From a virus, in IMG/VR virus record IMGVR_UViG_3300020048_000003: a stretch of 64,000 nucleotides of DNA. One strand, 5' to 3'. Positions 5,665-63,973 of this stretch are shown piece by piece. Below the pieces are notes generated by a model. It had not been told where the DNA came from, did no database searches, and was given only the letters and a program-made list of their open reading frames with translations. Both the position numbers and the translations under genes were made by a program. Numbering within the stretch: the first letter of the stretch is position 1; each line of letters starts with the position of its first letter.

Positions 5665-5692
5665 AATTTTTTGTTTTTTAGAACTATAAGAG

Positions 5693-5707
5693 TGCAAAGA
5701 TACGGAA
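5693..5707 (-). promoter_or_regulatory. Conserved promoter element TTCCGTATCTTTGCA (Bacteroidetes-type -7 TAnnTTTG)
   Basis: Reverse complement of tgcaaagatacggaa; the same motif recurs upstream of at least 8 other genes. Confidence 0.55.
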
Positions 5708-5725
5708 GATTTTTTGATTAAAAAA

Positions 5726-6744: not shown

Positions 6745-6746
6745 AA

Positions 6747-6760
6747 TGCAAAGGTACGGA
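6747..6760 (-). promoter_or_regulatory. Conserved promoter element (CCGTACCTTTGCA) 2 nt from the ATG
   Basis: tgcaaaggtacgg lies immediately 5' of the 6744 start on the minus strand. Confidence 0.5.
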
Positions 6761-6779
6761 AAACTTTTGCATTAAAAAA

Positions 6780-10160: not shown

Positions 10161-10667
10161 TCATAAAATTATCATATCCAAAAGTTCCCACATTGGTTCA
10201 TATTCACCAGGTACATAAAGCATTTTCTTAAAATGTTCATGTTCTTTTCTGTAAAGATCAATCATTCTGTTTCCTTTTTTAAGGCTATATTCAACATTAG
10301 CCAACCTATCACAAAGTTTAACAAATGTTGCGTACTTGGTGTTTCTTATACCTTCATAATATTTATCACTTGCTCTTTCGGCACGATTACGACCTTTTTC
10401 ATTCGTACAAGCGTAAGCCAATTCAGCAATTCTTTCGTTTGTTGCTTTTTTTACATCATTAAAAGTTAAACCACAATCTTCAATTGAGTCATGTTCCCAG
10501 ATTCCACCAATAACATCATTTAAGTCATTTTCAGGAATAAGGTGACTAAACCTTAATCCAAAACTTTCTGCTAAAGACAAATGAACTTCATATGATTCTC
10601 CATCATATAAATGATTTACTGCTTTATGGGCTAAAATTGCGTGTTTTCTTATTTCTGAGATTGTCAT
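10161..10667 (-). CDS. HD-domain phosphohydrolase
   Basis: H..H...HD: YEVHLSLAE...IWEHDSIED. Confidence 0.65.
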   Translation of the reverse strand: MTISEIRKHAILAHKAVNHLYDGESYEVHLSLAESFGLRFSHLIPENDLNDVIGGIWEHDSIEDCGLTFNDVKKATNERIAELAYACTNEKGRNRAERASDKYYEGIRNTKYATFVKLCDRLANVEYSLKKGNRMIDLYRKEHEHFKKMLYVPGEYEPMWELLDMIIL

Positions 10668-10691
10668 ATTATTTTCCTTTAGAACACAAAT

Positions 10692-10961
10692 TTACGGATT
10701 TTTTTCTTCTAAAAAAATTTTCAACTTCTTTAATTTTTTTTTTCTTACATCTTTGATACAATCAAAATAATCCCATAATAGAGCAACACATTCATCCTCA
10801 TTAAGATATGTGTAAAATGATGATGAAGTTTTAAAATCATTTAATATACTCACAGTTCTTTTACCTGATAAATAGTAGACTTTATAAGGTTTACCTACAG
10901 TAAACCCCAGTCCCACTCCTTTTATACAAATTAATTCATCACCAAGTTTAAGAGTTTTCAC
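10692..10961 (-). CDS. Fam-B small protein (tail RKKKLKKLKIF), LGDELICIKG barrel
   Basis: Conserved tail. Confidence 0.6.
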   Translation of the reverse strand: MKTLKLGDELICIKGVGLGFTVGKPYKVYYLSGKRTVSILNDFKTSSSFYTYLNEDECVALLWDYFDCIKDVRKKKLKKLKIFLEEKNP

Positions 10962-15562: not shown

Positions 15563-15882
15563 CAATCAAATATTTTTCTGATATTTTTAATTTTCTCTTT
15601 TCGTTGTTCACCAATATTCACAAAATAGATATTTACATGACTTTCCACCCAAAGAGTACATTCATTTTTTATTCTCTTATTCCTCTCAATTTCACCTAAT
15701 TGATTAATCTCAGTATAATATCTTCTCTGCTTAGGTGTTTCATCATTTGAAATGTAATAAGCACCTTTTTCATTAATATCAATAATTTGATATCTTAAGC
15801 CTAATGTATATATAGGTGTGCTAACATATTGCCGTGGTGGCATTTCCTTAATTAAGGTCAAAAAATCTCCTACTTTATTCAT
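15559..15882 (-). CDS. Fam-B small protein (tail [10 protein letters not shown]), VGDFLTL barrel
   Basis: Tail. Confidence 0.6.
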
Positions 15883-16868
15883 TTTAAATCGTGTAACATC
15901 ATTATTTTTACTAGTTCTTTAAATTTAACTTTTGCTTCCCAACCTAATATGGCTTTGGCTTTTGTAGGATCACCTAATAATAAATCAACTTCGGTTGGTC
16001 TAAAGTATTTTGGATCACTTTCAACAACAATTTTACCTGTTTTTTTATCTACTCCTATATCATTTGAAAGCCAATTAATTTCAACATCAATATATTTACA
16101 TGCTTCTTCTATAAATTCCCTAACAGAATGACATTCTCCTGTTGCTAAAACAAAATCATCTGGCTCATCTTGCTGAAGCATTAAATACATACCATATACA
16201 TAATCTTTTGCATATCCCCAATCTCTTTTAGCATCTAGATTACCAATCTTTATAGTTTCACCAGTTTTTTTCCAATTTGCCAAACCTCTTGTTATTTTTT
16301 TGGTAACAAAAGTTTCTCCTCTTCTTTCACTTTCATGATTAAATAGTATACCATTAGAAATGAATAAGTTATAGCCTTCACGATAATTTCTAGTCATCCA
16401 AAAAGCATATAATTTTGCTACTCCATAAGGTGATCTAGGATAGAATGTTGTTTTTTCATTTTGAGGTACTTCTTGTGCTTTTCCATAGAGTTCACTTGTT
16501 GATGCTTGATAAATTTTGGTATGTGGAGAGTAGTTTCTAACTGTTTCTATTAATCTTAAAACTCCCATTGCATCAACCTGTCCAGTATATTCTGGTAATT
16601 CAAAACTAACCTGTACATGTGATTGAGCAGCAAGGTTATATATTTCATCAGGTTTTACTTTTTGAATTATGTGTTCTATTGATAATGTATCTGTTACATC
16701 TCCATAATGTAAATGGAGTTTTGGATAAATATGATCAATACGACTAGTATTAAATGAACTTGATCTTCTTATAATGCCATGTACTTCATATCCTTTATCA
16801 AGTAATAATTCAGCAAGGTACGAACCATCTTGTCCCGTAATTCCAGTAATTAGTGCAATTTTTTTCAT
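15879..16868 (-). CDS. gmd: GDP-mannose 4,6-dehydratase
   Basis: [48 protein letters not shown] is near-identical to the bacterial Gmd N-terminus. Confidence 0.9.
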
Positions 16869-19463: not shown

Positions 19464-21347
19464 TTATTTTTTAAATGTACTTATAGTATCAATTACAACT
19501 CCCTTAATTTCTTCTTGTGAAATTAGTTTTAATTTTGATATTTCTAACATTCTATTAAATAGTTCTGGATTCATATTTGACCGACCAGCAACATTCTTTT
19601 TTGATTCTATATTTCCATCAAAAAAGAATGAATGATGTATATAGCCTACTCCATTTGGTTTAAGTACTCTATAAATTTCACTCAAATAATTCTGAATAAC
19701 AAATTTATCCATATGAACAAAAGAATCCCAAGAAAAAACAAAATCCAAAGATTCATCTTTAAAATCGCTAAGACTTTTACCATTATTTATTGAATATTTT
19801 TCAATATAGTTACCAAACCTTTCTCTGCATTTTATAATACAATTCTCATTCAAATCAACAACACTAAGGTTATTTGTATATTTAAGCAAATATGTTGTTA
19901 TTCTACCATGTCCTGGCGCAATCTCTAAAACATTTCCTTTTATATAATCTTTAATTTTTGGATAGATAATTTCATTCCAAACTTTTTCTGTACCACCAAA
20001 AACATCTGACCATTCTTCACCATCTCTTTCCCATTCTGAATCATTATTCCAGAATTTTTGTTCTTTTGTATTATCATATACTTCAGTTTTTTCAATTTTA
20101 ACTTCTTTATTATGAGTTGATTTTAGAATTTCATATGCCTTTTTTGCTGAATTTTCCCAAGAAAATTCTTCTCTTATGAGTTCTGAATCTTTGATTGCTT
20201 TTTCTTTATATTGCCAATAGTTTATATAAACATCTCTCATAACTCTTGATAAGTCATGAAAATCTGGTTCTATATAATTACCAACTGAATTTGGAATTGG
20301 TTTTTCATCTAACACATTGACTGGATGACCTTTACCACTTGCAAATTCTAATTGACCACTCCAATTTGAATATATTGATGGTGTACCACAAGCCATAGCC
20401 TCTATAAGAGGTAAATTCCAACCTTCTGATCTTGCACAAGATAGAAATACATGACCATTTCTTAAATAGTTTATATAATCTTCTCTTTCAAGAAAATGAA
20501 GAACTTTTAATCTATCATCTTTAAAGTTGAATTTTTCTAATCTCTCTTCGGTAGTTTTCATTCCATCTACGGCATAATCAGCATTATCCACAGCTAAAAT
20601 TAAGTCAACTGGCTCGTTATTTTGAAATGTTTTAAGAAAGGTCTCAATGATTTCTTTGGTCGCTTTACGATACTCCCAACGACCTATAAGTATAAATTTA
20701 AATCTATTATCTTTATACAAATCTAAATTTTGATTAAAATAATCTGGTGAGAATATTTTACCGTCAACTGCTTCAGGTACTACATAAATTTTATCAGATG
20801 GATATCCTTGTTTTATAGCACATTCTTTCTGCCATTTAGAAGGAACCCATAGTTGATCAAATTTTTTAAGTTTTTCAAAAAAATTATCTTCGTATCTTGT
20901 TGATTCCCAGACATTATATGCTATTTTAGTTCCTTTATATTTTTCAATAGAATTAAAATAGTGATGATTTGTTTCACTTAGAACTATATCTATTATATCT
21001 TCTTGTTTGTATTCATTAAGATAAGTAAGTCCATCATTAACAGGATAATCACATATTCCAGAATCATATCTATTTTTTTCACTTTTACCACAGTAAAGTG
21101 TTTGCTCACATATTAGATTTCTTTGATAATCAGTAAGGTATGTTTCATTTTTATGTGGATCTCCATAAACACCTTTAGAATCAATTGTACCTAAACCATT
21201 CCAAGTTTTTCCAACTGTAAAATTTTTAACTTTTACTGGTGTTAGATGGCTTAGAGCAGTAAAAAAATCTCTTGCATGTGCATTATATCCTGTGTGTCCA
21301 ACGAAACTTGTATTACCTTTTACAAAAAAATTATTATTGATTTCCAT
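19464..21347 (-). CDS. Bifunctional glycosyltransferase (GT4-like) with a C-terminal class I SAM methyltransferase
   Basis: EGWNLPLIEAMACGTP (EX7E) in the N-terminal half; VLEIAPGHGRIT...LKPNGVGYIHHS in the C-terminal half. Confidence 0.7.
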   Translation of the reverse strand: MEINNNFFVKGNTSFVGHTGYNAHARDFFTALSHLTPVKVKNFTVGKTWNGLGTIDSKGVYGDPHKNETYLTDYQRNLICEQTLYCGKSEKNRYDSGICDYPVNDGLTYLNEYKQEDIIDIVLSETNHHYFNSIEKYKGTKIAYNVWESTRYEDNFFEKLKKFDQLWVPSKWQKECAIKQGYPSDKIYVVPEAVDGKIFSPDYFNQNLDLYKDNRFKFILIGRWEYRKATKEIIETFLKTFQNNEPVDLILAVDNADYAVDGMKTTEERLEKFNFKDDRLKVLHFLEREDYINYLRNGHVFLSCARSEGWNLPLIEAMACGTPSIYSNWSGQLEFASGKGHPVNVLDEKPIPNSVGNYIEPDFHDLSRVMRDVYINYWQYKEKAIKDSELIREEFSWENSAKKAYEILKSTHNKEVKIEKTEVYDNTKEQKFWNNDSEWERDGEEWSDVFGGTEKVWNEIIYPKIKDYIKGNVLEIAPGHGRITTYLLKYTNNLSVVDLNENCIIKCRERFGNYIEKYSINNGKSLSDFKDESLDFVFSWDSFVHMDKFVIQNYLSEIYRVLKPNGVGYIHHSFFFDGNIESKKNVAGRSNMNPELFNRMLEISKLKLISQEEIKGVVIDTISTFKK

Positions 21348-26815: not shown

Positions 26816-27289
26816 TTATTCCTTTATTTTCCATCTTTTGTATGGTTTTTTTATCAAATTTGAATTATAATATTTTGATTCTTCACTTACTTCTTTTATA
26901 GTCCAAGGTGGAATTGCAAAATATTCTTTTTCATCTTTTAACTCAATTTCGGCTATAACCAAGCCTTGATTTGCTCCTGAAAACACATCAACAGTCCAAT
27001 ACTTCTCACTAAAATATATTGTAGTTCTTTTTTTAGTAATTGTTTTCTTGCACATACCAATTAACTGAATACCATCAGCATGAGGAATTTCATACTCAAA
27101 TTCATCCCTTGATATACCTTCTGTTTTTCCTTTTATTGTGATGAATGCTTTATCATCCTCTATTCTTATCCTAATGACTTTTTTACCATCATCAGTAAGA
27201 TATCCTTGTTGAATATCAGTTGTTTTAAAAGGATTTAAGTTGACTCTTGTTAAGTCAACTAAAAATTTTCTTTCTATTTCTTTTCCCAT
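26816..27289 (-). CDS. CYTH-domain protein (triphosphate tunnel metalloenzyme)
   Basis: N-terminal EIERKFLV (ExExK) and a later IEIELKDE. Start set at MGKEIERKF. Confidence 0.7.
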   Translation of the reverse strand: MGKEIERKFLVDLTRVNLNPFKTTDIQQGYLTDDGKKVIRIRIEDDKAFITIKGKTEGISRDEFEYEIPHADGIQLIGMCKKTITKKRTTIYFSEKYWTVDVFSGANQGLVIAEIELKDEKEYFAIPPWTIKEVSEESKYYNSNLIKKPYKRWKIKE

Positions 27290-27982: not shown

Positions 27983-28497
27983 ATTGTTTTATCTATATTT
28001 TTTATTTTTTCAAGTTTTTGTTTTCTCATTTCTTTTACCTCATTTTGACTTTCAAGCCATTCTATATCAACTGTGTTTTTTATAGAAACAAATCTTTTTC
28101 GTACTATATTTTTTACATACTCATATTGTTCTGACGCAAAACCAGATTCAATTTCTATTTCCATTATTTGAGTTTTTGATTCTCCATTTGTAAATCTTTC
28201 TATTTCTTTTACATAAACTATACACACATACTTATCTCCAGGAATATTATTTTTTTTATCTTCCTCAGATACAAGAGTTACGTTTTCCTTGTAATATCCC
28301 CATTTTTTCTTAGGTGATAAATCTTCAATAGCAATTGTGAGTTTTCTATTTAAATTTTTAATTTCAAGATTTAAATTTTCAAATTCTTTGTTTTCTTTCC
28401 CTATTATATTTCTTAATTTCATATCAGCCTTTGTGTATAAAACTAAAAATAAAATAGTTAAGCAAAAGAAAACAGCGGATAATATTATGTAAATCAT
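27979..28497 (-). CDS. Fam-B protein with an N-terminal TM (tail RKQKLEKIKNI)
   Basis: Tail. Confidence 0.6.
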   Translation of the reverse strand: MIYIILSAVFFCLTILFLVLYTKADMKLRNIIGKENKEFENLNLEIKNLNRKLTIAIEDLSPKKKWGYYKENVTLVSEEDKKNNIPGDKYVCIVYVKEIERFTNGESKTQIMEIEIESGFASEQYEYVKNIVRKRFVSIKNTVDIEWLESQNEVKEMRKQKLEKIKNIDKTI

Positions 28498-28799
28498 TTT
28501 GTTTTATTTTTTATATGTTTTAATTTAAATTTTCTAATTTCATTTTCATTGCAAAAATAATCATAAAAATAAGGTAGATTATAATTTTCTTCAAGTTTTG
28601 TAATCTTAAAACGAATTCCACCTTTTCTATTATTATTCCAAATATAAATATATTCACTATCAATGATTGTTGGATTAAAGTGAATATCTTCTAATTGAAA
28701 TCTTTTACTAAATTCATTTTTAAAAAACTCACCAAAAAACTCACAACCACCATAATGGTAATATTTTTTACATAGAACTTCTTTTATTGGTTTATTCAT
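28494..28799 (-). CDS. Fam-B small protein (tail IRKFKLKHIKN)
   Basis: Tail. Confidence 0.55.
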   Translation of the reverse strand: MNKPIKEVLCKKYYHYGGCEFFGEFFKNEFSKRFQLEDIHFNPTIIDSEYIYIWNNNRKGGIRFKITKLEENYNLPYFYDYFCNENEIRKFKLKHIKNKTK

Positions 28800-28838
28800 A
28801 AAAACAAATATAGTTTTTTATTTAAAATAAAAAAAATA

Positions 28839-40653: not shown

Positions 40654-41150
40654 TAAAATTATTTGAATCTTATTCGTTAAAAAGTGATATAGAAGAACTT
40701 TCTAGTGCTATACTAGATTTATCTAAAAATGTTTTTAAAGATATTAAACCAAAACCTTTTGGTGTTTGCTCTTGGATAAGTATTCCTGTTTGTCAATTTT
40801 CACTTTATTATAATAGTCAAACAATATTTTATTGTATTATGGAAATATCTAAAGAAATGGATAATGAATTTGCAAGAAATCAATTTAACGGACAGATACC
40901 AGATGAATATTATACACAAGATATTACTATCAAAATAATTAGGCAATATCCTTTTAATACAAAGTTTATTGAACCTTTTTTTAACTATTTAAGATATATA
41001 GTATTATCAGTTAGTGAAGTTACAAATAAGAGGATATCTTCTACTAGTTTTATTAGTTCAATAAAACAGGAGAATGTTAAAGAAATTATATCAAAGTTAA
41101 ATATAGAAGATTATGAACTTTGGTTAGAAGCAAGTAAATACAATTTATAA
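40650..41150 (+). CDS. Fam-A protein (MIKLFESY...ASKYNL)
   Basis: Termini. Confidence 0.7.
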   Translation: MIKLFESYSLKSDIEELSSAILDLSKNVFKDIKPKPFGVCSWISIPVCQFSLYYNSQTIFYCIMEISKEMDNEFARNQFNGQIPDEYYTQDITIKIIRQYPFNTKFIEPFFNYLRYIVLSVSEVTNKRISSTSFISSIKQENVKEIISKLNIEDYELWLEASKYNL

Positions 41151-41318
41151 ATCAATCATCTGATTTTCAACTATCAAATATTGCATTTTTGTACCTTCAA
41201 AGATTATAGAACAATCTTTTTTCTTTGCTTTATCAAGGTTCTGATACATAAAAACTTTAGTAATTTTAAGTTTCTGTAAATCATCCAATTGGCTATATTT
41301 TTTAGTAGTTTTTTCCAT
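41145..41318 (-). CDS. Unlisted 57-aa ORF (MEKTTKKYSQLDDLQK...) with a promoter motif 3 nt upstream
   Basis: Hand translation; its TTA stop abuts the TAA of the convergent Fam-A gene. Confidence 0.35.
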   Translation of the reverse strand: MEKTTKKYSQLDDLQKLKITKVFMYQNLDKAKKKDCSIIFEGTKMQYLIVENQMIDL

Positions 41319-41334
41319 AGCACAAAGATAGACA
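41319..41334 (-). promoter_or_regulatory. Conserved promoter element (GTCTATCTTTGTGC) adjacent to the ATG
   Basis: gcacaaagatagac. Confidence 0.45.
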
Positions 41335-41381
41335 TTTTTTCTGACTTAAAAAATTAATTTTCATTTTTTATATATAATAAT

Positions 41382-42845: not shown

Positions 42846-43955
42846 TTATTGTCCTCTACCATATAATACTGTAAAGAAAGTCTTAAAGAATATTTTTATA
42901 TCTTGAGTAATAGACCAATTATTAATGTAATCCATATCTAACTGCATCCAATCATCAAACTTTATATCATTTCTATTTTTTTGAATTTGCCATAAACAAG
43001 TTATACCAGGTTTTGTTAACAATCTTAAAAAATATTTCTTTTTATACTTTTTAATTTCTTCTTCTAACGAAGGTCTTGGACCAATTATGGACATATCACC
43101 TTTTAAAACATTAAGAAATTGTGGAAATTCATCAATGCCAGTTTTTCTTAAAAAAGATCCAATATTTGTTATTCTTGGGTCTTTTTTTATTTTAAAAACC
43201 GGACCATCTGCCTCATTTAATTTCATTAAGTCCTTTTTAATATCCTCGGCATCAGAAACCATAGTTCTAAATTTATATAAAGTAAATTCTTTACCATGTA
43301 GACCTATTCTTTTTTGCTTGAATATAATAGGACCTTTTGATGTTAGTTTTATTAATAATGCAATAACAAAAAGAAAAGGTGCTGACAATAAGAGAATAGA
43401 AAAAGATAAAATCATATCGGTTATTTTCTTTTTTCTCAAATCACACATAGGTAACAATTCAATATCTTTGTGATAATTTATTCTTGATATTAATTTTTTA
43501 GCAGTTCCTTCCCTACCACTAATTAGAAAATTTTCAGTCATTGTACTATTTTCAATGATTTCAGGATTTTTAATTTTTTCTTTTGCACAACTACCATCAC
43601 TTAATACATTTTTTACACTTTCTAGTAATTGTTCTGAATGAACAGGTTTTTCTATATAATCACACGCACCTAATTGCATTGACTTGATTATCAATGGTAC
43701 TTCATCATAACCAGTAAACATAATTACTGGTATAACATAATTGCTTTTAATATATTTTAGAATTTCAATTCCTGACATACCACCTGGTATATCATAATCA
43801 GTTATAATTAAATCTATATTAGAATTTTTTAGTCTTTCAATTCCTATTTCACCGGAAATTGCGGTATATACTTTGTACCCGTTATCTTTTAATGTTTTTT
43901 TCACTAACATTAAAATTATTTCATCATCATCTATAAGTAAAATTGATTTTTTCAT
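42846..43955 (-). CDS. Response-regulator receiver (REC) domain fused to a bacterial sugar transferase (WbaP/WcaJ/PglC-type polyprenyl-phosphate hexose-1-phosphate transferase)
   Basis: ILLIDDDE...DLIITDYDIPGGMSG...MFTGY is a REC domain. C-terminal TM plus RIGLHGKEFTLYKFRTM...GPRP is the sugar-transferase signature. Start set at MKKSILL (43955); the longer ORF-track N-terminus is translated terminator hairpin. Confidence 0.8.
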   Translation of the reverse strand: MKKSILLIDDDEIILMLVKKTLKDNGYKVYTAISGEIGIERLKNSNIDLIITDYDIPGGMSGIEILKYIKSNYVIPVIMFTGYDEVPLIIKSMQLGACDYIEKPVHSEQLLESVKNVLSDGSCAKEKIKNPEIIENSTMTENFLISGREGTAKKLISRINYHKDIELLPMCDLRKKKITDMILSFSILLLSAPFLFVIALLIKLTSKGPIIFKQKRIGLHGKEFTLYKFRTMVSDAEDIKKDLMKLNEADGPVFKIKKDPRITNIGSFLRKTGIDEFPQFLNVLKGDMSIIGPRPSLEEEIKKYKKKYFLRLLTKPGITCLWQIQKNRNDIKFDDWMQLDMDYINNWSITQDIKIFFKTFFTVLYGRGQ

Positions 43956-44020
43956 ACTAGCTATATTAGAATTTGTATTGTTGCAATGATAAGGAATAAT
44001 TTTTAAAATAAAAAATAAAA

Positions 44021-44046
44021 AGAGCCAATTTGGCTCTTTTTTTGCT
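44021..44046. terminator. Bidirectional intrinsic terminator
   Basis: aaaaagagccaatttggctctttttttg. Confidence 0.7.
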
Positions 44047-44072
44047 ATCAGGTTCATTTGAATATCGCATTT

Positions 44073-45754: not shown

Positions 45755-45926
45755 AACATTTTTTTATTTTTTATTTCTGACCTGCTAATTTATTTATTGC
45801 TTTTCAACAATTCCAAAGCCAATTGACTCTAAACTAACAAGATCCAAAAAATGAACCTGACCGCAGTTTAAGTGCGATACGATAGTATATATTAATTTTT
45901 TAGGACCCCTTTTTTATTTTTCAAAA

Positions 45927-45941
45927 ATTTTCCGTACTTTT
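45927..45941 (+). promoter_or_regulatory. Promoter element TTCCGTACTTTTGTG 5 nt upstream of the ATG
   Basis: The same TTCCGTAnnTTTG core as the minus-strand copies, here in plus orientation. Confidence 0.45.
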
Positions 45942-45946
45942 GTGCT

Positions 45947-46438
45947 ATGAAATACTATAAACAAGAAAAAAACTATACTTGTGGCGTTGCTTGTCTTCGT
46001 ATGGTTCTTTCTGCTCAAGGTTTACCAGATATAGATGAAGATACATTAGAAGAAATGATTGAATGTGTTCCAGAATCTGGAACTCATTATAAATCAATGG
46101 TTTCATTTGCTGATAAATTTGATTTAGATTGTATATCTCATGAAGGTGGTACAGTTGAAGAAATAGATGAATTAACTAAGCAAGGTTGGAGTGTAGTAGT
46201 TGCATATAGTGTTGATGTTCCTCACTTTGCGTTATATGAAAAATGTAACGACAATCATTTATTTTTATGTGATCCTTTCTTTGGTGAACATGTTGCACAC
46301 TTAAAAAAGAAATTTGCAAGAGTATTATGGCAAATAGATGTTTCAAGATATAAATTTGCAATTGCCGAAATGGATTTGAAATTAGATAAATCATTAGATA
46401 CTAAATGTTGGTATGTTGCTTATAAACAAAAAATATAA
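45947..46438 (+). CDS. C39-like papain-fold cysteine peptidase domain protein
   Basis: YKQEKNYTCGVACLRMVLS (Gln...Cys) with a downstream His (VPHFA) and Asp (CDP). Confidence 0.6.
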   Translation: MKYYKQEKNYTCGVACLRMVLSAQGLPDIDEDTLEEMIECVPESGTHYKSMVSFADKFDLDCISHEGGTVEEIDELTKQGWSVVVAYSVDVPHFALYEKCNDNHLFLCDPFFGEHVAHLKKKFARVLWQIDVSRYKFAIAEMDLKLDKSLDTKCWYVAYKQKI

Positions 46439-49186: not shown

Positions 49187-49534
49187 TTGATGAAAATAAA
49201 AAAGTTCAATCAAATTAACGAAGCATCTGAGGATGATGTTGATAAACATATAATTATAACGGTTAGTATGAAAGACGAATTCCAATGTACTTTAGCTGAT
49301 ATCAAAGAAACAACAGCTTATTGGAATCATTTAAAATATATACAAGATAAAAATTTTAATGAAACTGATGAAGAGATAGAAAGACAAGCTGTTTATTATG
49401 GATTAGAGGAATATTGTTATAATCAAGGTAAGGGTGGATTTTCTTATAATTTTGTAGATAATGCTGGCAATAAAATTGAAAATTTAGATACATATAGAGA
49501 ATTTATAAAAGATACAAAAAAATATAATATATGA
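49187..49534 (+). CDS. Fam-A protein (..KIKKFNQINE...TKKYNI)
   Basis: C-terminal motif; starts an 11-gene array. Confidence 0.65.
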   Translation: MMKIKKFNQINEASEDDVDKHIIITVSMKDEFQCTLADIKETTAYWNHLKYIQDKNFNETDEEIERQAVYYGLEEYCYNQGKGGFSYNFVDNAGNKIENLDTYREFIKDTKKYNI

Positions 49535-49818
49535 AAATTAGAAAATTTTTTGAGCAATATGAGTTAGATGTTGATGGTGATGGTGGTATAGCAGAAGAAT
49601 ATGTCAAATTAATAATATCAACATATATTGATAAACAACATTTGGAGCATGTTACTTTAGAAAAAGTGTATAGAGATGTTGTAAAAGGTGACGACTTAGA
49701 TGAATCTCAATGTGAAATAATAAGAGATGAATTAAAAATATACATTACATTTCTATTAAGATATGCTAAACAAATTAGAAAAATATTTGAAATAGACGCT
49801 GAGGATTATAACTTATGA
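49531..49818 (+). CDS. Fam-A-like protein (MKIRKFFEQYE...AEDYNL)
   Basis: Termini. Confidence 0.65.
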   Translation: MKIRKFFEQYELDVDGDGGIAEEYVKLIISTYIDKQHLEHVTLEKVYRDVVKGDDLDESQCEIIRDELKIYITFLLRYAKQIRKIFEIDAEDYNL

Positions 49819-50150
49819 AACATTTAAAATTATTTGAAAAAAAAGGAAAATTTGAAGTAGAAATTAAAGAATCACTAAAAAAGTTTTGTGGTGAATTTGG
49901 TTTTTTTGATTATGAATATAACTATTATACTTATACGAAGGTGACAAACATTTCATTTAGAATTACAGGTAAAATAAATCAAGAAAATGAAAAAAAATTT
50001 AATGAGGTACTTAATTTTATTAAAAATTATCATAATTGGGAAATAACACCATATATGAATACATTTCGTGTATTTTTTTGTCCGACAGATCCAGAACAGT
50101 TTTTAAATGATTTAGAAACTATTATATCAGCAAAAATTTATAATTTATGA
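49815..50150 (+). CDS. Fam-A protein (MKHLKLFE...AKIYNL)
   Basis: Termini. Confidence 0.7.
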   Translation: MKHLKLFEKKGKFEVEIKESLKKFCGEFGFFDYEYNYYTYTKVTNISFRITGKINQENEKKFNEVLNFIKNYHNWEITPYMNTFRVFFCPTDPEQFLNDLETIISAKIYNL

Positions 50151-50476
50151 GATATATTAAAACATTTGAGAAAAAATATGTAGAACCTTTTAGAAGAAAT
50201 AGAAAAAAAAATGGTCCGAAACCAAAATTTAATGTTGGTGATGAGGTTATTGTTATGTATGATTTAACACAATTTGGTTACCCATATGGGATCGTAAAAG
50301 GTGATATCGTTACAATAGTTGATTATTGGATAAATGCAAATGATGATATATCATATAAAATAGATAGTCCTAAACTTCGTGAGATAAAAAAAGGTAGAGA
50401 CATAGAATATGATATGTTTGATGAATTTCATTTCGCGTATGAATATGAAGAAGATGCAAATAAATATAATTTATGA
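50147..50476 (+). CDS. Fam-A protein (MRYIKTFE...ANKYNL), VGDEVIVMYD barrel
   Basis: Termini. Confidence 0.75.
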   Translation: MRYIKTFEKKYVEPFRRNRKKNGPKPKFNVGDEVIVMYDLTQFGYPYGIVKGDIVTIVDYWINANDDISYKIDSPKLREIKKGRDIEYDMFDEFHFAYEYEEDANKYNL

Positions 50477-50796
50477 AATATATTAAAACATTTGAAAAAA
50501 GATATAAACAAGAGGAGGATTTTGAAATTCCAGATGGAACTAAATTGTTGTGTGTTAGAAGTGATTACCATATGTTTAAGGTTGGTGATATTGTAGAAAT
50601 GAATTATTATAAAGCATATGGTGGTGTTGGATATTATTCTGGTATATCAAAAAATAATACAACTTATAGTGCTACGGTTATTGATGCAAATACAGTTCTA
50701 TTGGATAAATATCAAAGTACAGATGCGACTTTCACAACAGATGCTACAATAGAAGATTATAAATTAAGAAAAGCAACGGAGAAATATAATTTATGA
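50473..50796 (+). CDS. Fam-A protein (MKYIKTFE...TEKYNL), VGDIVEMNY barrel
   Basis: Termini. Confidence 0.75.
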   Translation: MKYIKTFEKRYKQEEDFEIPDGTKLLCVRSDYHMFKVGDIVEMNYYKAYGGVGYYSGISKNNTTYSATVIDANTVLLDKYQSTDATFTTDATIEDYKLRKATEKYNL

Positions 50797-51233
50797 AATA
50801 TATTAAAATGTATGAAATAAAGAGTTTAGAAAAAAGAACTGACATTTTTGCTGATGCTGTCAAAAATGATAAGAAAGCTTTGATTAATAAGATGATTGAT
50901 AATGATATTAATCAAAATGAAGGAGAATTTATATTAATAGCAGTGATTTATAATGATGAGAAGATTTTGAAAAAATTAATAAAAAAAGGCGTTGACTTAA
51001 ATGCATTAACTCAAGCAGGATATTCGCCATTAATTTTTACTGCTATTCAAGGTTTTCATAGTTGTATGAATACACTTATAGAAGCAGGTGCAGATTGGAA
51101 TATTATAGATGATAGTGGACATGATTTTTTAAGATATTTACCATCTTATTTAAGAAATAAAACAATAGAAAAATATCCAGAGCAATATAAAGAATATTTA
51201 TTTAGAAAAGAATCAGAAAAATATAACTTATGA
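50793..51233 (+). CDS. Fam-A protein with ankyrin repeats (MKYIKMYE...SEKYNL)
   Basis: KKGVDLNALTQAGYSPLIFTAIQGFHSCMNTLIEAGADWNIIDDSGHDFL is an ANK repeat pattern. Confidence 0.75.
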   Translation: MKYIKMYEIKSLEKRTDIFADAVKNDKKALINKMIDNDINQNEGEFILIAVIYNDEKILKKLIKKGVDLNALTQAGYSPLIFTAIQGFHSCMNTLIEAGADWNIIDDSGHDFLRYLPSYLRNKTIEKYPEQYKEYLFRKESEKYNL

Positions 51234-51562
51234 AATATATTAAAACATATGAAACTATAAATATTCCTTCATCACGACCGAGTGATGCGTGGCTTAATGT
51301 ATATACTGATTATAGAGTAGGTGACATTGTAAAAATTTGGAACGAATTTTATGCTGGTGAGATAGTTTATTTGTGCCGTTCATATGGCGGAAGATATACT
51401 AGTCATGATGTTAAAGGTATTATGAATTATGATGGTTCATTAAGAAATGGTGATATAAAGACGATAGATGAAGAATATATGAGAAAATTAGATCCTAATG
51501 AGTTGAAAGGATTTAAAGATTTGTTAAGTATGCACGATGATGTAAAAAAATATAATTTATGA
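51230..51562 (+). CDS. Fam-A protein (MKYIKTYE...VKKYNL), VGDIVKIWN barrel
   Basis: Termini. Confidence 0.75.
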   Translation: MKYIKTYETINIPSSRPSDAWLNVYTDYRVGDIVKIWNEFYAGEIVYLCRSYGGRYTSHDVKGIMNYDGSLRNGDIKTIDEEYMRKLDPNELKGFKDLLSMHDDVKKYNL

Positions 51563-51819
51563 AATATATTAAAATATATGAAATGAAAAAACAAAAACCA
51601 AAATTTTCTGTTGGTGAGAAGGTGGAATGTATTTTCTCTAGATGGGGAAATCTAAAGGAGGGTGAAATATATGAAATTGAAAGAATTACTTGGTCTAGAA
51701 GAAAAGGTAAATTTGTGTGTAAATTAAAAGGTGTTGGTGCAGATGATGAGTATTCTTATTTTTCAGAGAATAATTTTATTAGTGAACTTGAACATGATAT
51801 GAAAAATTATAACTTATGA
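51559..51819 (+). CDS. Fam-A protein (MKYIKIYE...MKNYNL)
   Basis: Termini. Confidence 0.75.
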   Translation: MKYIKIYEMKKQKPKFSVGEKVECIFSRWGNLKEGEIYEIERITWSRRKGKFVCKLKGVGADDEYSYFSENNFISELEHDMKNYNL

Positions 51820-52250
51820 AATATATTAAAACATTTGATAATACTAGTCAGAAATTAGAAGATATTAAAAAACTTCAATTGTCTAAACTTGCTATTTTTA
51901 AATTTTCAAAAAAAATAAACGAATTATTTCAAAAACATTATAATGTATCAACAATATTAAGAGAAGAAGATTCAAATCACCACCAAATAAAAAATAGATA
52001 TGATATATCTGATAGTGTTTTAAAAAGAAAAACATATTTTTCAATTTCAATTACACCTAATTATAAAATAGATATTTTTCCTCTTAGTGTAAGCAACGAT
52101 TTAGAAAAATTTTTTATAGAATTTTTTGATTTGGATTCACAAAATTATAGTATAAGAATATTCTGCACTTCAGAAGAATTGAATGATTATTGCGATATAA
52201 TTGTTGATGAATTTGATTTGTATGTTGCCACAAAAAAATATAACTTATGA
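51816..52250 (+). CDS. Fam-A protein (MKYIKTFD...TKKYNL)
   Basis: Termini. Confidence 0.75.
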   Translation: MKYIKTFDNTSQKLEDIKKLQLSKLAIFKFSKKINELFQKHYNVSTILREEDSNHHQIKNRYDISDSVLKRKTYFSISITPNYKIDIFPLSVSNDLEKFFIEFFDLDSQNYSIRIFCTSEELNDYCDIIVDEFDLYVATKKYNL

Positions 52251-52687
52251 AATATTTACATTTATTTGAAAATCAAAATGAATCATACCCTTATGAATGG
52301 GAAAATATTGTTCAAAAAGGTAACAAATTATATATTTATGTCTATGAATTAGCAAACGAAATGGAAAGTGATGTTGCTGGAAAAGGTAAAGAAGAATTAG
52401 TTAAAATGGAACATACTTATTATAAGTTAATTAGAAATTTATTAATTGGTAAAGTTATAACCTTTGACTGTGAAGAATGTTCAATTGAACATACTGGTAT
52501 TTGTGATACCGTAGGTTTTTCTTCTGGACGTTATGAAGAAGGATCCGATGATACATTTCAAGTTCAGTTTGTACATATATCAACAGAAGATATAGATGAC
52601 CAGCATAATATTGAAGATGAAGAAATAATTGTTCACTTAGACATTGATCCTGAAACTTATAGAACAGCAAATAAATACAATTTATAA
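52247..52687 (+). CDS. Fam-A protein (MKYLHLFE...ANKYNL)
   Basis: Termini. Confidence 0.75.
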   Translation: MKYLHLFENQNESYPYEWENIVQKGNKLYIYVYELANEMESDVAGKGKEELVKMEHTYYKLIRNLLIGKVITFDCEECSIEHTGICDTVGFSSGRYEEGSDDTFQVQFVHISTEDIDDQHNIEDEEIIVHLDIDPETYRTANKYNL

Positions 52688-52695
52688 TATAATTT

Positions 52696-53010
52696 ATGAA
52701 ATATATACTGGAAATGAAACATATGAAATCTGCAATTTATTATAGTGATGGATCCGCTTATTATGAGGACTATAATGACATGGATGAATTTGATTTAGAG
52801 ATAGTTAAAAATTATAAATTTAGAATAGGTGATTGTGTTAGAATAAACGACACTATTGTTGTATATAAAATATTAGCAGTTTCTCCTGACTCAAAGTATC
52901 AATATAAAATTGGAAGATACGATCAAGGATTTGGTACAAATAGAATAGAAGAAAAAGATTTAGTTCCAATATCAGACTTTGAAAGAAATATAATGAAGTA
53001 TAATTTGTAA
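52696..53010 (+). CDS. Fam-A protein (MKYILEMKHMK...IMKYNL), IGDCVRIND barrel
   Basis: Termini. Confidence 0.7.
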   Translation: MKYILEMKHMKSAIYYSDGSAYYEDYNDMDEFDLEIVKNYKFRIGDCVRINDTIVVYKILAVSPDSKYQYKIGRYDQGFGTNRIEEKDLVPISDFERNIMKYNL

Positions 53011-57403: not shown

Positions 57404-57618
57404 TTTTCATCATGTTTTTGCTCAGTAATTTTATGAACGAGTGTCAATATACCCTCAATAGCATGTTCTCTTCTTGATTGACTTAGAGTTTCTTCCATTT
57501 CTAATACTCTATTTATGAGAAACGCAATTTGAACAATGTTTCCTGTTTCAATTAAACTTGAACCAACAAAAATTTCAAGTAGGTTTGTTATTTCTTCCAT
57601 TCTATTACTGACTTTCAT
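57388..57618 (-). CDS. Hypothetical small protein
   Basis: 76-aa ORF; its 3' end overlaps the TTGCCGG repeats. Confidence 0.45.
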   Translation of the reverse strand: MKVSNRMEEITNLLEIFVGSSLIETGNIVQIAFLINRVLEMEETLSQSRREHAIEGILTLVHKITEQKHDENETGN

Positions 57619-57935
57619 ATATTATATTTTCTACATTCATATTCAAATTTCAAATCCATTGTGTACTTATCAAAATCTAAAATAGGTTCCCATTCATCTT
57701 CTGTTTCTTTAAACTTAGTATAAGTTGTTTCCCCTTTATGATGTCTACCAGTTGTAGAATAATGACCATAAGGAATTAAATCTGATGGTTCGCACCATAC
57801 TACCTCAGATTCGTGAATAAAGGTAACTCTATCAACCCAATAGTATGAGCGGTGAGCCGTTATACTCATATCTATTTTTGAATACCAGTATCTACCACCC
57901 CATTTATTTTGCCAATATGTTTTATCTTCTTCCAT
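57615..57935 (-). CDS. Fam-A-like protein (C-terminal ...ECRKYNI)
   Basis: C-terminal junction motif. Confidence 0.55.
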   Translation of the reverse strand: MEEDKTYWQNKWGGRYWYSKIDMSITAHRSYYWVDRVTFIHESEVVWCEPSDLIPYGHYSTTGRHHKGETTYTKFKETEDEWEPILDFDKYTMDLKFEYECRKYNI

Positions 57936-58115
57936 TTACAAAAATAAGGAATAGTTTTAAATAAAAAAACTATTCCTCATTTTCTTTTTTTAGTTGTTCT
58001 AACTTCTTTTTACGTAAGTATTGCTCTATGATTTTTAAATCTACTGTTTCAAGTATAGCATAAGGATCATATTCTTCCTCGACACCAACACCATCATCCC
58101 AAAAGAAACTATCTT

Positions 58116-58790
58116 CTATTCCCATATTACATCATTATTTTCTTTATTCCATTCAATTGTTAATGGTTGATTAGCATAATTATATTGCTCATTCAACACA
58201 GAAGCATTAAAGAAATGTGTGTTACCATTTGTGGTATATCCATAACCACTATGAACATGACCACAAACATGTATTTTTGGCTTAATTAAATCAATTCTTT
58301 CTCTCAATATCTCACAACCTTTATGAGAATTATCACCAATCATTGTGTCAAGATATCCAAATACAGGTCCATGAGTTATAAGTATGTCGGTATCAGCAGG
58401 AATTTGATTCCATTTATCAACCATTTCTTGGCTATTTCTTTCAATATTGAAAGCCCAATTTAAAAATTTTGGTTGATATGGTGAACCATATATTTTGACA
58501 AGATTAGGATGTTCACCAATATAAACAAAATCATCTTCAAGATAGATAACATCATATTCTTTTAGAAGTTCTTGAATTTTTGAAGGATTATCTTGAAAGA
58601 AAAAATCGTGATTACCAGCAACCAATATCTTATAAGTATATGGTAATTTATTATACCACTTTAAGAAGTTTTTTATCTCATGTTCATATCCCATGCTTGA
58701 TATATCACCAGCACATATAACTACATCACCACCAGGTAAATGTAGTTGTTTTTGTTTGTTGTGTGTGTCAGAGATAAAAGTTATTTTCAT
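58116..58790 (-). CDS. Calcineurin-like metallophosphoesterase
   Basis: MKITFISDTH...GDIS...GNHD...GHVH. Start set at the Met adjacent to the promoter motif. Confidence 0.8.
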   Translation of the reverse strand: MKITFISDTHNKQKQLHLPGGDVVICAGDISSMGYEHEIKNFLKWYNKLPYTYKILVAGNHDFFFQDNPSKIQELLKEYDVIYLEDDFVYIGEHPNLVKIYGSPYQPKFLNWAFNIERNSQEMVDKWNQIPADTDILITHGPVFGYLDTMIGDNSHKGCEILRERIDLIKPKIHVCGHVHSGYGYTTNGNTHFFNASVLNEQYNYANQPLTIEWNKENNDVIWE

Positions 58791-58805
58791 AAGGCAAAGA
58801 TAGGG
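58791..58805 (-). promoter_or_regulatory. Conserved promoter element (CCCTATCTTTGCCTT) abutting the ATG (leaderless)
   Basis: aaggcaaagataggg lies immediately 5' of the 58790 start. Confidence 0.5.
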
Positions 58806-58824
58806 AATTAATTTAAAAGAAAAA

Positions 58825-58851
58825 AGCCGCAATTTTACTTGCGGCTTTTTT
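58825..58851. terminator. Bidirectional intrinsic terminator
   Basis: aaaaaagccgcaattttacttgcggctttttt. Confidence 0.7.
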
Positions 58852-59078
58852 AGACAAAAACAGAATAATCAAAAGTACTCAATAAACCAGCATTCAATAG
58901 TATTTATATCTAAAAAAATTTCAATAGTTTAATAAAAGTTACCCTCGTGTCTCCAATAAGTAACGAATAAACTTATTTGATAATCAACATTGCGTTACCC
59001 CCGTGTCTCCAGTAAGTAACTTTATATAGTTTTTGTTTTTAGTTAAAAATTAGTTGTTACTAGTTATTGTTTCAATCA
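58852..59078 (-). ncRNA. Candidate about 230-nt non-coding transcript (promoter to terminator, no ORF) carrying two 27-nt direct repeats GTTACCCYCGTGTCTCCARTAAGTAAC
   Basis: The promoter motif at 59081-59096 points leftward and a terminator sits at 58825-58851. The repeats lie at 58938-58964 and 58994-59020, each with 5-bp inverted ends (GTTAC/GTAAC). The ORF track lists no ORF here. Confidence 0.4.
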
Positions 59079-59080
59079 GA

Positions 59081-59096
59081 GTACAAAGATAGGGAA
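59081..59096 (-). promoter_or_regulatory. Conserved promoter element (GTTCCCTATCTTTGTAC)
   Basis: gtacaaagatagggaac. Confidence 0.5.
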
Positions 59097-59212
59097 CATT
59101 CTTGAATAAAAAAAATTATTTGAAAAAATAATTAAACAATCTGTAAATAGTTAGTAATATGCCTGTTATAAACAATATTATAGCACTATATGCGATTGTG
59201 TTGAATATTCCT

Positions 59213-59939: not shown

Positions 59940-60170
59940 TTATTTTACTTTTAGTTTCTTTATTACATTTATTGTAAACCAGATTATTCCAATGCCATAT
60001 ACACCGAGAAAAATTGTTGCTACTGTGTTTGGAGCGCCATTAAAAAATCCTAAATTGAATCCCAATTTTAGTATTGCAAAAGAATACATTAAATATGTAA
60101 CAATTGCAATAAGTAGCATACCTTTGTAAAAGATTCTACCTTGTTCATTTAATACCCTTTTCTCTTTCAT
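59940..60170 (-). CDS. Small membrane protein (2-3 TM)
   Basis: Promoter motif 10 nt upstream; the antisense ORF 59932..60129 is rejected. Confidence 0.5.
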   Translation of the reverse strand: MKEKRVLNEQGRIFYKGMLLIAIVTYLMYSFAILKLGFNLGFFNGAPNTVATIFLGVYGIGIIWFTINVIKKLKVK

Positions 60171-60183
60171 AGTTTTGAATTAG

Positions 60184-60199
60184 AATACAAAGATAGGGA
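60184..60199 (-). promoter_or_regulatory. Conserved promoter element (CTTCCCTATCTTTGTAT)
   Basis: atacaaagatagggaag. Confidence 0.5.
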
Positions 60200-60219
60200 A
60201 GTTTTTTGAAATAAAAAAA

Positions 60220-63241: not shown

Positions 63242-63568
63242 TTATACATTATATTTATCACAAGTAGCTTTATATTTTGCTTCATTTGCCTTAACAAGTG
63301 CAAAAGTTTTTGCCAATTCTTTGTTTACCTGATCATACAAACCAGAAGGAAAATCTGACATATTTCCCTTTTCATCAACTGTGATTTTTTTATCTTTCCA
63401 AAGAAAGTAATATTTATCAGTTACTTCGTTCAAAAGCATCTGATTACGAAATTTATTAAATTCGTGCTCATTGTTGATTAAGCCAACAAATTCACTTGTT
63501 TTTTCACCTGTGATTTTGTATGCCTCAACTTTTGGAGTCTTATATCTTTCAATTACAATTTCTTTCAT
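63242..63568 (-). CDS. Hypothetical protein
   Basis: Promoter motif 13 nt upstream. Confidence 0.55.
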   Translation of the reverse strand: MKEIVIERYKTPKVEAYKITGEKTSEFVGLINNEHEFNKFRNQMLLNEVTDKYYFLWKDKKITVDEKGNMSDFPSGLYDQVNKELAKTFALVKANEAKYKATCDKYNV

Positions 63569-63580
63569 GACTTTTTTATT

Positions 63581-63594
63581 TGATACTGCAAAGA
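63581..63594 (-). promoter_or_regulatory. Conserved promoter element (TTCCCTATCTTTGC)
   Basis: gcaaagatagggaa. Confidence 0.5.
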
Positions 63595-63610
63595 TAGGGA
63601 AAATATCCGA

Positions 63611-63973
63611 TTAAAAAATATTTTTAAGTTTATTTAATTTTTCCTTTCTGAGTAATGTTTCTATTTTTAAAGCTCGTGGTAGCTTATTGTGTATGAAATA
63701 TCTATCTAGATTATAGTAATAATGATTTAATTCTTCTTCCCATGATGTAACATTTAATAATTTTTCTCTTGTAAGTTCACCTGTATTATTTTCAAGTAAT
63801 ATTTTTACTTTATTTATAACATGTTGAACAACTTTTTGGTCTGATATAAAATGTTGATGTTCTGGATCCATGCTATCCAGAATCTTTTCAAATTCGGCAA
63901 TTAAATATTTATTATACTTTTCGTATATATCAGTAGGATATATAACGGAATTATCTTTATATACTGCTATCAT
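63611..63973 (-). CDS. Fam-B small protein (tail LRKEKLNKLKNIF)
   Basis: Tail. Confidence 0.6.
   Translation of the reverse strand: MIAVYKDNSVIYPTDIYEKYNKYLIAEFEKILDSMDPEHQHFISDQKVVQHVINKVKILLENNTGELTREKLLNVTSWEEELNHYYYNLDRYFIHNKLPRALKIETLLRKEKLNKLKNIF

Follow-up and report, generated by a model that had tools for sequence, protein, structure and literature searches.

In the Bacteroidota, promoters read by the primary sigma factor carry a TTTG or TTG element near -33 and a TAnnTTTG element near -7 (Baez 2019, PMC6847099; Ryan 2020, PMC7366714; Guerin 2021, PMC9723704; further sources are Bayley 2000, Vingadassalom 2005 and Chen 2007). In Flavobacterium johnsoniae the -7 element comprises T-12, A-11, T-8, T-7, T-6 and G-5 with no G at -10 or -9 (revised consensus TAHHTTTG), transcription starts 4-5 nucleotides (nt) past the element, and a -33 motif is not evident (PMC6847099); Bacteroides thetaiotaomicron and F. 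psychrophilum have an identical -7 consensus. A promoter taken from the B. fragilis phage phiB124-14 drives constitutive expression in B. thetaiotaomicron cells that are not infected, with no phage proteins needed (PMC10746243), and a promoter derived from that phage is far stronger than ribosomal RNA or rpoD promoters (bioRxiv 10.1101/2025.03.18.644028; PMC10746243). Here we analyze a repeated element found upstream of genes in a 64,000-nt stretch of the IMG/VR virus record IMGVR_UViG_3300020048_000003 (the whole stretch is referred to as the window), one copy of which, at site 58795 on the minus strand, directly precedes a metallophosphoesterase gene.

With a probability of roughly 0.8, we suggest from the sequence that these sites are promoters read by the host primary sigma factor (of the Bacteroidota sigma-A, or 'sigma-ABfr', type) in a huge, uncultured, Mahaphage-related phage of 26% GC.

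Architecture and placement of the element

A first-pass annotation had listed nine copies of a short motif directly upstream of genes. When the whole window was scanned with its 15-mer form, TTCCSTAYCTTTGYA, and expectations were taken from shuffles, five exact copies were found against 0.00 expected, and 13 copies at up to two mismatches against 0.75 expected, a number reached in 0/100 shuffles. All nine of the listed copies are present, with coordinate offsets of 0-6 nt, and their corrected positions are as follows.

15-mer, minus strand: 5693-5707, 6747-6761, 29529-29543, ~41321-41335, 58793-58807, 59082-59096, 60186-60200 and 63587-63601
15-mer, plus strand: 45930-45944

The 15-mer is the 3' half of a fixed bipartite architecture of about 36 bp. 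The pattern TTTTTT-N17-TAnnTTTG has 13 exact matches in the window against 0.41 expected, or against 0.04 when shuffling is restricted to the approximately 4 kb of intergenic sequence, and in a scan of spacings from 8 to 27 nt the sole peak is N17; the counts at N16 and N18 arise because of runs of seven or eight T. Two extra sites (45935, plus strand, and 63589, minus strand) have the T-run shifted by 1 nt, which gives 15 sites in the window. Six more sites of the same architecture, against 0.18 expected (flank L141), turned up in 19.8 kb that flank the window on the source contig (ENA ERZ27262924 k141_278361, 209 kb) and had played no part in defining the motif. The motif as first described is therefore real and repeated, but that description overlooked an invariant T6 at -35 to -30 and an A-tract. 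A literature search with the literal sequence TATCTTTGCA returned nothing useful.

All 21 sites, 15 from the window and six from the flanks, were aligned and numbered with the G of TTTG at -5. The conserved positions reach from -37 to +2 in 21 copies within 84 kb. From the 5' end, they comprise an A at -37, T6 at -35 to -30 (T in 20-21 of the 21 sites at each position), TT at -27/-26, an A-tract at -24 to -21 (15-18/21) and TTCCS at -17 to -13, in which T-17 and T-16 are followed by C-15 (13/21), C-14 (14/21) and S-13 (16/21). The -7 box, TAYCTTTG, spans -12 to -5 and is followed by Y-4 and R-3 and by a predicted start element of T-1 (16/21), A+1 (12/21) and T+2 (15/21). TAnnTTTG is present at every site and G occurs at neither n position in any of them, as TAHHTTTG prescribes, so that the first-pass assignment of the core to the Bacteroidota sigma-A -7 element holds. 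CC at -15/-14 is found in 10 of the 15 window sites; four sites that lack it (30062, 34733, 38421 and 41323) share their intergenic regions, which separate divergent genes, with a second motif, ATATATA (described below), to which they stand back-to-back.

The placement of the sites was judged against a simple gene model of 131 open reading frames (ORFs) that covers 94% of the window and agrees with the source's own gene calls where those exist. There are 143 TAnnTTTG octamers in the window, 121 of them genic, and none of the 121 genic octamers carries the T-run, whereas all 15 T-run sites fall within the intergenic 5.9%. The six flank sites are likewise all upstream of genes, including those for a DEAD helicase and an Eco57I-like enzyme. 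Between same-strand genes the sites are in the sense orientation in 10 of 10 cases, and each window site other than 59084, which is followed by no ORF, faces an ATG that begins 3-30 nt further downstream. Enrichment upstream of genes had been chosen beforehand as the check on the promoter reading, with copies inside genes or in random orientation counting against it; no genic or antisense T-run copies were found in the window or the flanks. The 15 window sites are listed here as predicted promoters, with the spacer counted from TTTG to ATG.

5690-5725, minus strand: promoter, TTCCG-TATCTTTG-CA; spacer 30 nt, predicted leader of ~26 nt; gene 5293-5664
6744-6779, minus strand: promoter (site 6749), TTCCG-TACCTTTG-CA; spacer 4 nt, predicted leaderless; RNA ligase gene 6124-6744
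10682-10717, minus strand: promoter, ATCCG-TAAATTTG-TG; spacer 19 nt; HD-phosphohydrolase-like gene 10161-10667
28800-28835, minus strand: promoter (site 28805), AAAAC-TATATTTG, no CC; spacer 5 nt; gene 28494-28799; preceded by an AT-rich hairpin
29526-29561, minus strand: promoter, GTCCG-TATCTTTG-TG; 21-nt spacer TGCTATCAAAACAGAAAAACT, the last 17 nt of which are a shared leader, ATCAAAACAGAAAAACT; gene 29354-29509
30057-30092, minus strand: promoter (site 30062), TGTTG-TACTTTTG, no CC; spacer 24 nt; gene 29744-30037 for a lysine-rich histone-H1-like protein; back-to-back with ATATATA at 30093
34728-34763, minus strand: promoter (site 34733), TTAAT-TAAATTTG, no CC; spacer 4 nt, predicted leaderless; cREC_REC gene 34285-34728; back-to-back with ATATATA at 34779
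38416-38451, minus strand: promoter (site 38421), ATATT-TATATTTG, no CC; spacer 7 nt; gene 38156-38413; back-to-back with ATATATA at 38459
41318-41353, minus strand: promoter (site 41323), ATGTC-TATCTTTG-TG; spacer 4 nt, predicted leaderless; gene 41145-41318; back-to-back with ATATATA at 41370
45911-45947, plus strand: promoter (site 45935), the sole plus-strand copy, TTCCG-TACTTTTG-TG, T-run off by 1 nt; spacer 4 nt, predicted leaderless; peptidase C39-like gene 45947-46438
57934-57969, minus strand: promoter (site 57939), TTCCT-TATTTTTG-TA; spacer 3 nt; gene 57615-57935
58790-58825, minus strand: promoter (site 58795), T6 at 58825-58820, TTCCC at 58807-58803, TATCTTTG at 58802-58795, spacer CCTT; predicted +1 at the A of the ATG at 58790; metallophosphoesterase gene 58116-58790, predicted leaderless mRNA
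59079-59114, minus strand: promoter (site 59084), TTCCC-TATCTTTG-TA, T8; no ORF downstream
60183-60218, minus strand: promoter, TTCCC-TATCTTTG-TA; spacer 17 nt; gene 59940-60170
63584-63619, minus strand: promoter (site 63589), TTCCC-TATCTTTG-CA, T-run off by 1 nt; spacer 20 nt; gene 63242-63568

At site 58795 the minus strand reads GCCGCAAGTAAAATTGCGGC-TTTTTT-CTTTTAAATTAA-TTCCC-TATCTTTG-CCTT-ATG; the copy at the coordinates first assigned to it is TTCCCTATCTTTGCC, followed by TT-ATG.

Predicted transcription starts and leaders

The distance between TTTG and the start codon falls into two classes. Among 19 sites the spacer is exactly 4 nt at six (6749, 34733, 41323, 45935, 58795 and one flank site); three others have spacers of 3, 5 and 7 nt, and in the remaining ten the range is 17-32 nt. 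A 4-nt spacer puts the A of ATG where Bacteroidota transcription start sites map (PMC6847099), and the mRNAs of these genes are therefore predicted to be leaderless. The first-pass annotation had claimed near-leaderless geometry at several sites; as predicted from the spacing, it is sharper than that. The published leaderless share is 5.5% for F. psychrophilum and, counting leaders of <10 nt, 3.7% for B. thetaiotaomicron, while 13% of the leaders of F. johnsoniae do not exceed 10 nt; nine short-spacer sites out of 19 correspond to a binomial p of 2.6e-7 against the F. psychrophilum rate. The geometry predicts that roughly half of the promoters place the mRNA 5' end on the AUG itself.

The start codons of these genes have good support. 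All nine short-spacer genes begin with ATG, the codon that leaderless translation needs, an upstream in-frame start is absent for four of the five in-window ORFs of the 4-nt class, and the source's gene caller picked the same starts, including that at 58790. Position 1 of the Metallophos Pfam profile aligns to residue 1 of the product of gene 58116-58790, and position 3 of the C39 profile aligns to residue 2 of that of gene 45947-46438. Gene 6124-6744, which has RNA_ligase Pfam and PHROG matches, is among the genes with no upstream in-frame start, and the orthologues of the ligase in LR756501 and LR756504 retain its N-terminus, MKxKYPR.

The leadered sites have ATC exactly where the leaderless sites have ATG, and four of them share nearly the same 17-nt leader, ATCAAAACAGAAAAACT, before ATG. 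This correspondence and the shared leader therefore suggest that both classes fit a common +1. The start element T-1/A+1/T+2 also conforms to the YRY start triplets noted in PMC12641261. Copies of the shared leader are found at the following positions.

29517-29533, minus strand: shared leader ATCAAAACAGAAAAACT, window
63575-63591, minus strand: shared leader ATCAAAACAGAAAAACT, window
~5880-5900 and ~3640-3660, minus strand: shared leader ATCAAAACAGAAAAACT, flank L141

The near-identity of these leaders, which extends beyond the promoter itself, is also what would be expected if the repeats were copies of a small duplicated or recombining cassette kept by recent descent and not by selection; in one IMG/VR contig, too, the sequence downstream of three promoters is identical. 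However, conservation at the sites is position-specific (T6, A-tract, TTCCS and -7 box, with variable sequence between them and non-homologous flanks), as in a set of binding sites, the spacing to ATG falls into two functional classes, and the architecture is common to phages with almost no protein similarity to the window. We therefore regard descent from a cassette as very unlikely to account for the repeats, and promoter function would be compatible with it anyway.

An element acting on RNA or translation rather than on transcription is, in our judgment, the least probable of the explanations considered. Such an element could lie in the 5'-untranslated region, recruit ribosomes in place of a Shine-Dalgarno (SD) sequence, or be a terminator or attenuator with the T-run as its U-tract. 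It would fit a motif that lies 3-32 nt from start codons in an SD-less genome, and the T-runs at 58795 and 28805 do follow a real hairpin. Yet the distance to ATG is bimodal and variable while the internal spacing of the motif is rigid, one copy (59084) has no downstream ORF, and in the 4-nt class most of the motif lies upstream of any plausible mRNA. A stable stem precedes only two of the 15 T-runs, at 58795 (-17.6 kcal/mol) and 28805 (-11.7 kcal/mol), the rest having values of -5.6 kcal/mol or weaker and no adjacent stem; since only two T-runs follow a real hairpin, the T-run is a promoter element and not generally a terminator tail. Pairing of the T-run with the A-tract as an RNA hairpin was likewise rejected as not credible, at an energy of about 0 to -5 kcal/mol.

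At site 58795 the T6 has a double role, as the U-tract of an intrinsic terminator and as the -35 to -30 element of the promoter. A GC hairpin followed by a promoter T-run is also seen in several motif-carrying IMG/VR contigs and in Bacteroides genomes. Between the 59084 promoter and this terminator there is no minus-strand ORF of at least 20 amino acids, and the transcript would be a candidate phage small RNA (sRNA).

58820-58851, minus strand: intrinsic terminator with a 13-bp stem, five GC pairs and a T6 tail; fold energy -17.6 kcal/mol
58822-59079, minus strand: candidate non-coding RNA of ~250 nt, from the 59084 promoter to the terminator

Within the candidate, a 27-nt sequence, GTTACTTAYTGGAGACACGRGGGTAAC, is directly repeated (59020-58994 and 58964-58938), and either copy could fold into a hairpin closed by GTTAC/GTAAC; the fold of the candidate has a z of -2.9. 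No Rfam family reached its gathering score in the window, with only terminator-like noise for the sRNA candidate, and the repeat GTTACTTAYTGGAGACACGRGGGTAAC had no match in IMG/VR.

Host assignment and the source of specificity

The first-pass annotation had proposed a Bacteroidetes or Flavobacteriia-type host, and at the level of the phylum, though no lower, the data agree. SD motifs occur upstream of 6.1% of 132 starts against a background of 6.1%, the region being A-rich and G-poor, and pairs of sigma-70-type hexamers are fewer than in shuffles (44 against 58.2 +/- 7.6, in 56-64 kb of the window). The closest protein relatives are in the uncultured huge phages LR756500 (462 kb) and LR756501/3 (735 kb), with identities of 52% for a protein resembling the major vault protein (MVP), 63% for the RNA ligase and 49-67% for others; Bacteroidetes hosts are predicted for the Mahaphage clade, which holds the largest genomes, and for Lak phages (PMC7162821). 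When one genome per GTDB species was scanned for T6-N12-TTCCSTATCTTTG, 116 loci were found, and of the first 80 of these, 48 are in Bacteroidota, mostly in promoter-like contexts, while the non-Bacteroidota matches resemble coding sequence. We assign the phage to a Bacteroidota host because of the missing SD signal, the sigma-70 depletion, the LR756500 and LR756501 relatives and the GTDB matches. The scan with the extended motif gave a single copy per bacterial genome and singled out no specific host; 24 kb of the window had no nucleotide match among 50,697 phage records, and a 457-residue hypothetical protein had no tblastn match.

To place the phage sites beside chromosomal ones, we searched 330 kb of the Bacteroidota loci for TAHHTTTG upstream of ORFs and, leaving out the seeded sites, obtained a rough set of 101; this set is noisy because the candidates were picked by sequence and not by transcription start site. 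It shows the A-rich stretch near -20 and C-4/A-3, and T near -35 is weak. By this comparison, the phage class is more elaborate than the average host promoter.

The same frame recurs in other phages. T6-N17-TATCTTTG occurs four times in the Prevotella megaphage Lak-B2 (0.21 expected) and five times in LR756501, the 735-kb genome (0.30 expected), and we found no published description of these Lak and LR756501 sites in the literature searched. The T6-N17 frame is also present in B. thetaiotaomicron phage DAC16 and in a 6-kb capybara-gut microvirus, where it stands before a hypothetical gene; this microvirus has only six annotated genes and no annotated transcription factor. Scanning IMG/VR with the extended motif returned about ten low-GC contigs with near-identical modules, TTTTTTATTTCAAAAAnTTTCCGTATCTTTGYA, and the stretches of them that were compared have hardly any proteins in common with the window (one weak match, in L009). 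Phage phiB124-14 has a five-copy promoter family with T-16/C-15/C-14 before TA(T/A)(A/C)TTTG-CA and TTG at -34 to -32. The architecture is not universal among Bacteroidota phages, since Flavobacterium phage FCL-2 has TATATTTGTA boxes with neither T6-N17 nor TTCCS. Lak-B2 (L133, 1-50000) has sites with TG at -14/-13 (ATGTG-TATCTTTG) that resemble the extended -10 'TGn', where the window has CC at -15/-14.

These comparisons bear on whether the host polymerase would be enough. The first-pass annotation had suggested that the extra TTCC(C/G) might mark a phage-specific promoter class; it is indeed absent from the rough chromosomal Bacteroidota consensus, but it is not private to this phage, since T-16/C-15/C-14 recurs in phiB124-14 and TTCCG in the IMG/VR contigs. 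If the promoters instead needed a phage-encoded sigma factor, an activator or a modified host polymerase that reads T6 and TTCCS, this would explain why C-15/C-14 and T6 are absent from the rough chromosomal consensus and why the extended motif is single-copy in each matching bacterial genome against about eight copies in 64 kb here. The pentamer at -17 to -13 is also lineage-dependent (TTCCS here, (A/T)TGTG in Lak, mixed in LR756501), and huge phages can encode sigma and anti-sigma factors. We nevertheless think such a requirement unlikely. In both the -7 box and the distance from it to the start element the sites match the host type exactly, the same frame occurs in phages that share nearly no proteins, the 6-kb microvirus among them, and Pfam annotation of the window and flanks contains no sigma or RNA polymerase gene. 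The phiB124-14 family has TCC at -16 to -14, and one promoter of that phage is active without phage proteins. As the TTCCS features recur in phiB124-14 and in nearly unrelated IMG/VR contigs, they are better read as an extended -7 element for the host polymerase than as the signal of a phage factor, and the host polymerase is probably sufficient.

A number of results weigh against promoters of the host sigma-A type. C at -15/-14 is not enriched in the 101-site chromosomal set (noisy and sequence-chosen), which leaves room for a phage-encoded specificity factor. The canonical G of the -33 element is absent, with T at -32/-33 in 21/21 sites, and the upstream element is therefore not the textbook TTTG; the T-run at -35 to -30 covers the TT of TTG (-34/-33) and G never occurs there, although this feature is weakly defining, F. 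johnsoniae having no evident -33 motif. If +1 is at the fifth base, spacers of 3 nt (57939) and 1 nt (3974 in flank L138) do not fit. Upstream of the orthologous RNA ligase gene of LR756501 and cREC gene of LR756500, both of which lie inside operons, the motif is missing, and 42 kb around the MVP homologue in LR756500 is without such sites. Lastly, the analysis covered 84 kb, and the contig measures at least 209 kb.

On balance we favor promoters for the host primary sigma factor, with the following mechanism. The T6 at -35 to -30 would stand in place of the -33 TTTG/TTG element, a short A-tract (-24 to -21) would lie one helical turn downstream of it, and an extended -7 element, TTCCS (-17 to -13), would precede TAYCTTTG in two thirds of the sites. 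Counting from the G of TTTG, transcription would begin at the fifth base, an A. For one subclass (six sites exactly, and nine of 19 within +/-3 nt) this +1 would be the A of ATG and would yield a leaderless mRNA, and in the other it would open an A-rich, SD-free leader of 13-28 nt. Recognition by the host RNA polymerase, the exact start site, leaderless translation and early timing are what we infer from these features.

A bolder version of this scheme, which we consider doubtful, would be a dedicated phage grammar. The T-tract would substitute for the -33 element, and a lineage-specific pentamer would act as a discriminator, read either by a phage factor or through a polymerase contact peculiar to the host lineage; deliberate placement of +1 on the AUG would create a leaderless early regulon, and a second promoter class, TTWATATATAR, would serve the small-gene arrays. 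Were this true, megaphages of a phylum without SD would have a translation strategy of their own, with a regulon comprising the RNA ligase, the phosphoesterases, cREC and the peptidase.

As host-sigma promoters, the sites provide an assignment of an uncultured huge phage to a Bacteroidota host from sequence and a usable map of transcription units: at least 15 predicted promoters in 64 kb, a second candidate class and one overlap of terminator and promoter. Since T6-N17-TATCTTTG is found in Lak, in the 735-kb phage, in a gut microvirus and in low-GC contigs, this simple pattern could flag Bacteroidota phages and early genes in metagenomes. Engineering of Bacteroidota could also draw on the modules as compact, strong promoters, a use for which phiB124-14 is a precedent, and the predicted leaderless excess is a testable statement about translation initiation in a phylum without SD pairing.

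Neighboring features and comparison with described systems

The second intergenic motif, ATATATA, occurs 15 times between genes in the window against 2.5 expected; its extended form TTWATATATAR occurs nine times against 3.3 expected, and the fuller form is (T)TTWATATATA(G/A)A.

ATATATA starts: 3855, 4698, 13590, 22253, 26306, 30093, 34779, 38459, 41370, 49164, 53022, 55447, 55472 and 62404

The copy at 49164 precedes the plus-strand small-gene array 49190-53010, and others lie before the plus-strand starts at 3867, 22277, 34807, 38499, 41382, 53064 and 55483, only 4-5 nt from the ATG in the case of 3855, 41370 and 55472. In four divergent regions the motif is back-to-back with the sigma-A-like promoters. 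TTWATATATAR is also enriched in LR756501 (10 against 1.3 expected) and is not enriched in Lak-B2, and it is probably a second, clade-specific promoter class. The first-pass annotation had held that long coupled gene arrays lack internal copies of the promoter motif, consistent with their expression from few promoters. The arrays do lack internal copies, but several small-gene arrays are preceded by ATATATA, and there are therefore probably at least two promoter classes, not merely few promoters.

The genes behind the sigma-A-like promoters encode the RNA ligase, a calcineurin-like phosphoesterase, an HD-type phosphohydrolase-like protein, a cREC receiver-domain protein, the C39-like peptidase and the histone-H1-like protein, together with the DEAD helicase and the Eco57I-like enzyme of the flanks. 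By analogy with the early promoters of T4, such a gene set would suit early, host-polymerase-dependent expression. Genes of an RNA-end-processing type, scattered over the window, are the RNA ligase (6124-6744), the HD-like gene (10161-10667), a CYTH gene (26816-27289), cREC (34285-34728) and the metallophosphoesterase (58116-58790); four of these five, all but CYTH, lie directly behind promoters, which suggests an RNA-repair or anti-defense module.

Elsewhere in the window, an 809-residue protein (30777-33206, minus strand) matches MVP_shoulder (E = 1.3e-27) and Vault_3 (E = 9e-10) and is SPFH-like. This is the MVP-like protein; its conservation, at about 52% identity, is confined to the huge phages LR756500 and LR756501/3, and a vault-protein-like gene is unusual in a phage. 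Enzymes of a polysaccharide type are also encoded, namely a GDP-mannose 4,6-dehydratase (E = 2e-141), a protein in which a glycosyltransferase and a methyltransferase are fused, and a bacterial sugar transferase joined to a response-regulator receiver domain.

15879-16868, 19464-21347 and 42846-44057: polysaccharide-type genes

Start and stop codons overlap as ATGA at about half of the junctions between genes, and the stop codons are TAA (73), TGA (54) and TAG (5).

When the sites are set beside Bacteroidota sigma-A promoters, they are alike in the -7 box, including the exclusion of G, in the distance to the predicted +1, in C/T-4 and A-3, in the A-rich stretch near -20, in their gene-proximal intergenic placement and in their SD-less context. 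They differ in that the phage has an invariant T6 without G upstream and TTCCS at -17 to -13.

The phiB124-14 family, from a 47-kb Bacteroides siphovirus of 39% GC, resembles the family described here in being multi-copy and highly conserved, in exceeding the host consensus and in having TCC at -16 to -14, whereas it has TTG and not T6, leaders of about 40 nt and no leaderless copies. It was from this family that Whitaker, in 2017, reportedly drew the constitutive tool promoter P_BfP1E6. The Lak and LR756501 sites share the T-run, the N17 spacing, the TATCTTTG-YA box and a similar A-rich spacer, and LR756501 also has the TTWATATATAR motif and several proteins in common with the window. Their -17 to -13 segment is different, being (A/T)TGTG in Lak and variable in LR756501, and the Lak-B2 copies examined have long leaders, unlike the leaderless class of the window.

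Leaderless mRNAs themselves are well known, from lambda cI transcribed from P_RM to the Actinobacteria, Deinococcus and archaea, where they are common. As in those cases, the promoter here would be set so that +1 is the A of AUG; unlike them, the leaderless mRNAs of this phage are predicted, they belong to a phylum in which such mRNAs are rare, and their density in one promoter class is unusually high.

The early promoters of T4 are a phage class for the unmodified host holoenzyme that is longer and more conserved than host promoters and has phased A/T tracts. By analogy, the sites in the window may likewise be a super-consensus host-sigma class with phased A/T tracts upstream, although the sigma family and the elements are different and early timing is predicted here from the genes served. 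Set against these systems, the sites are best read as a phage family of Bacteroidota sigma-A-type promoters, marked by the T-tract upstream, the TTCCS extension of the -7 element and a predicted share of leaderless mRNAs that is unusually high; the mechanism as such is not new.

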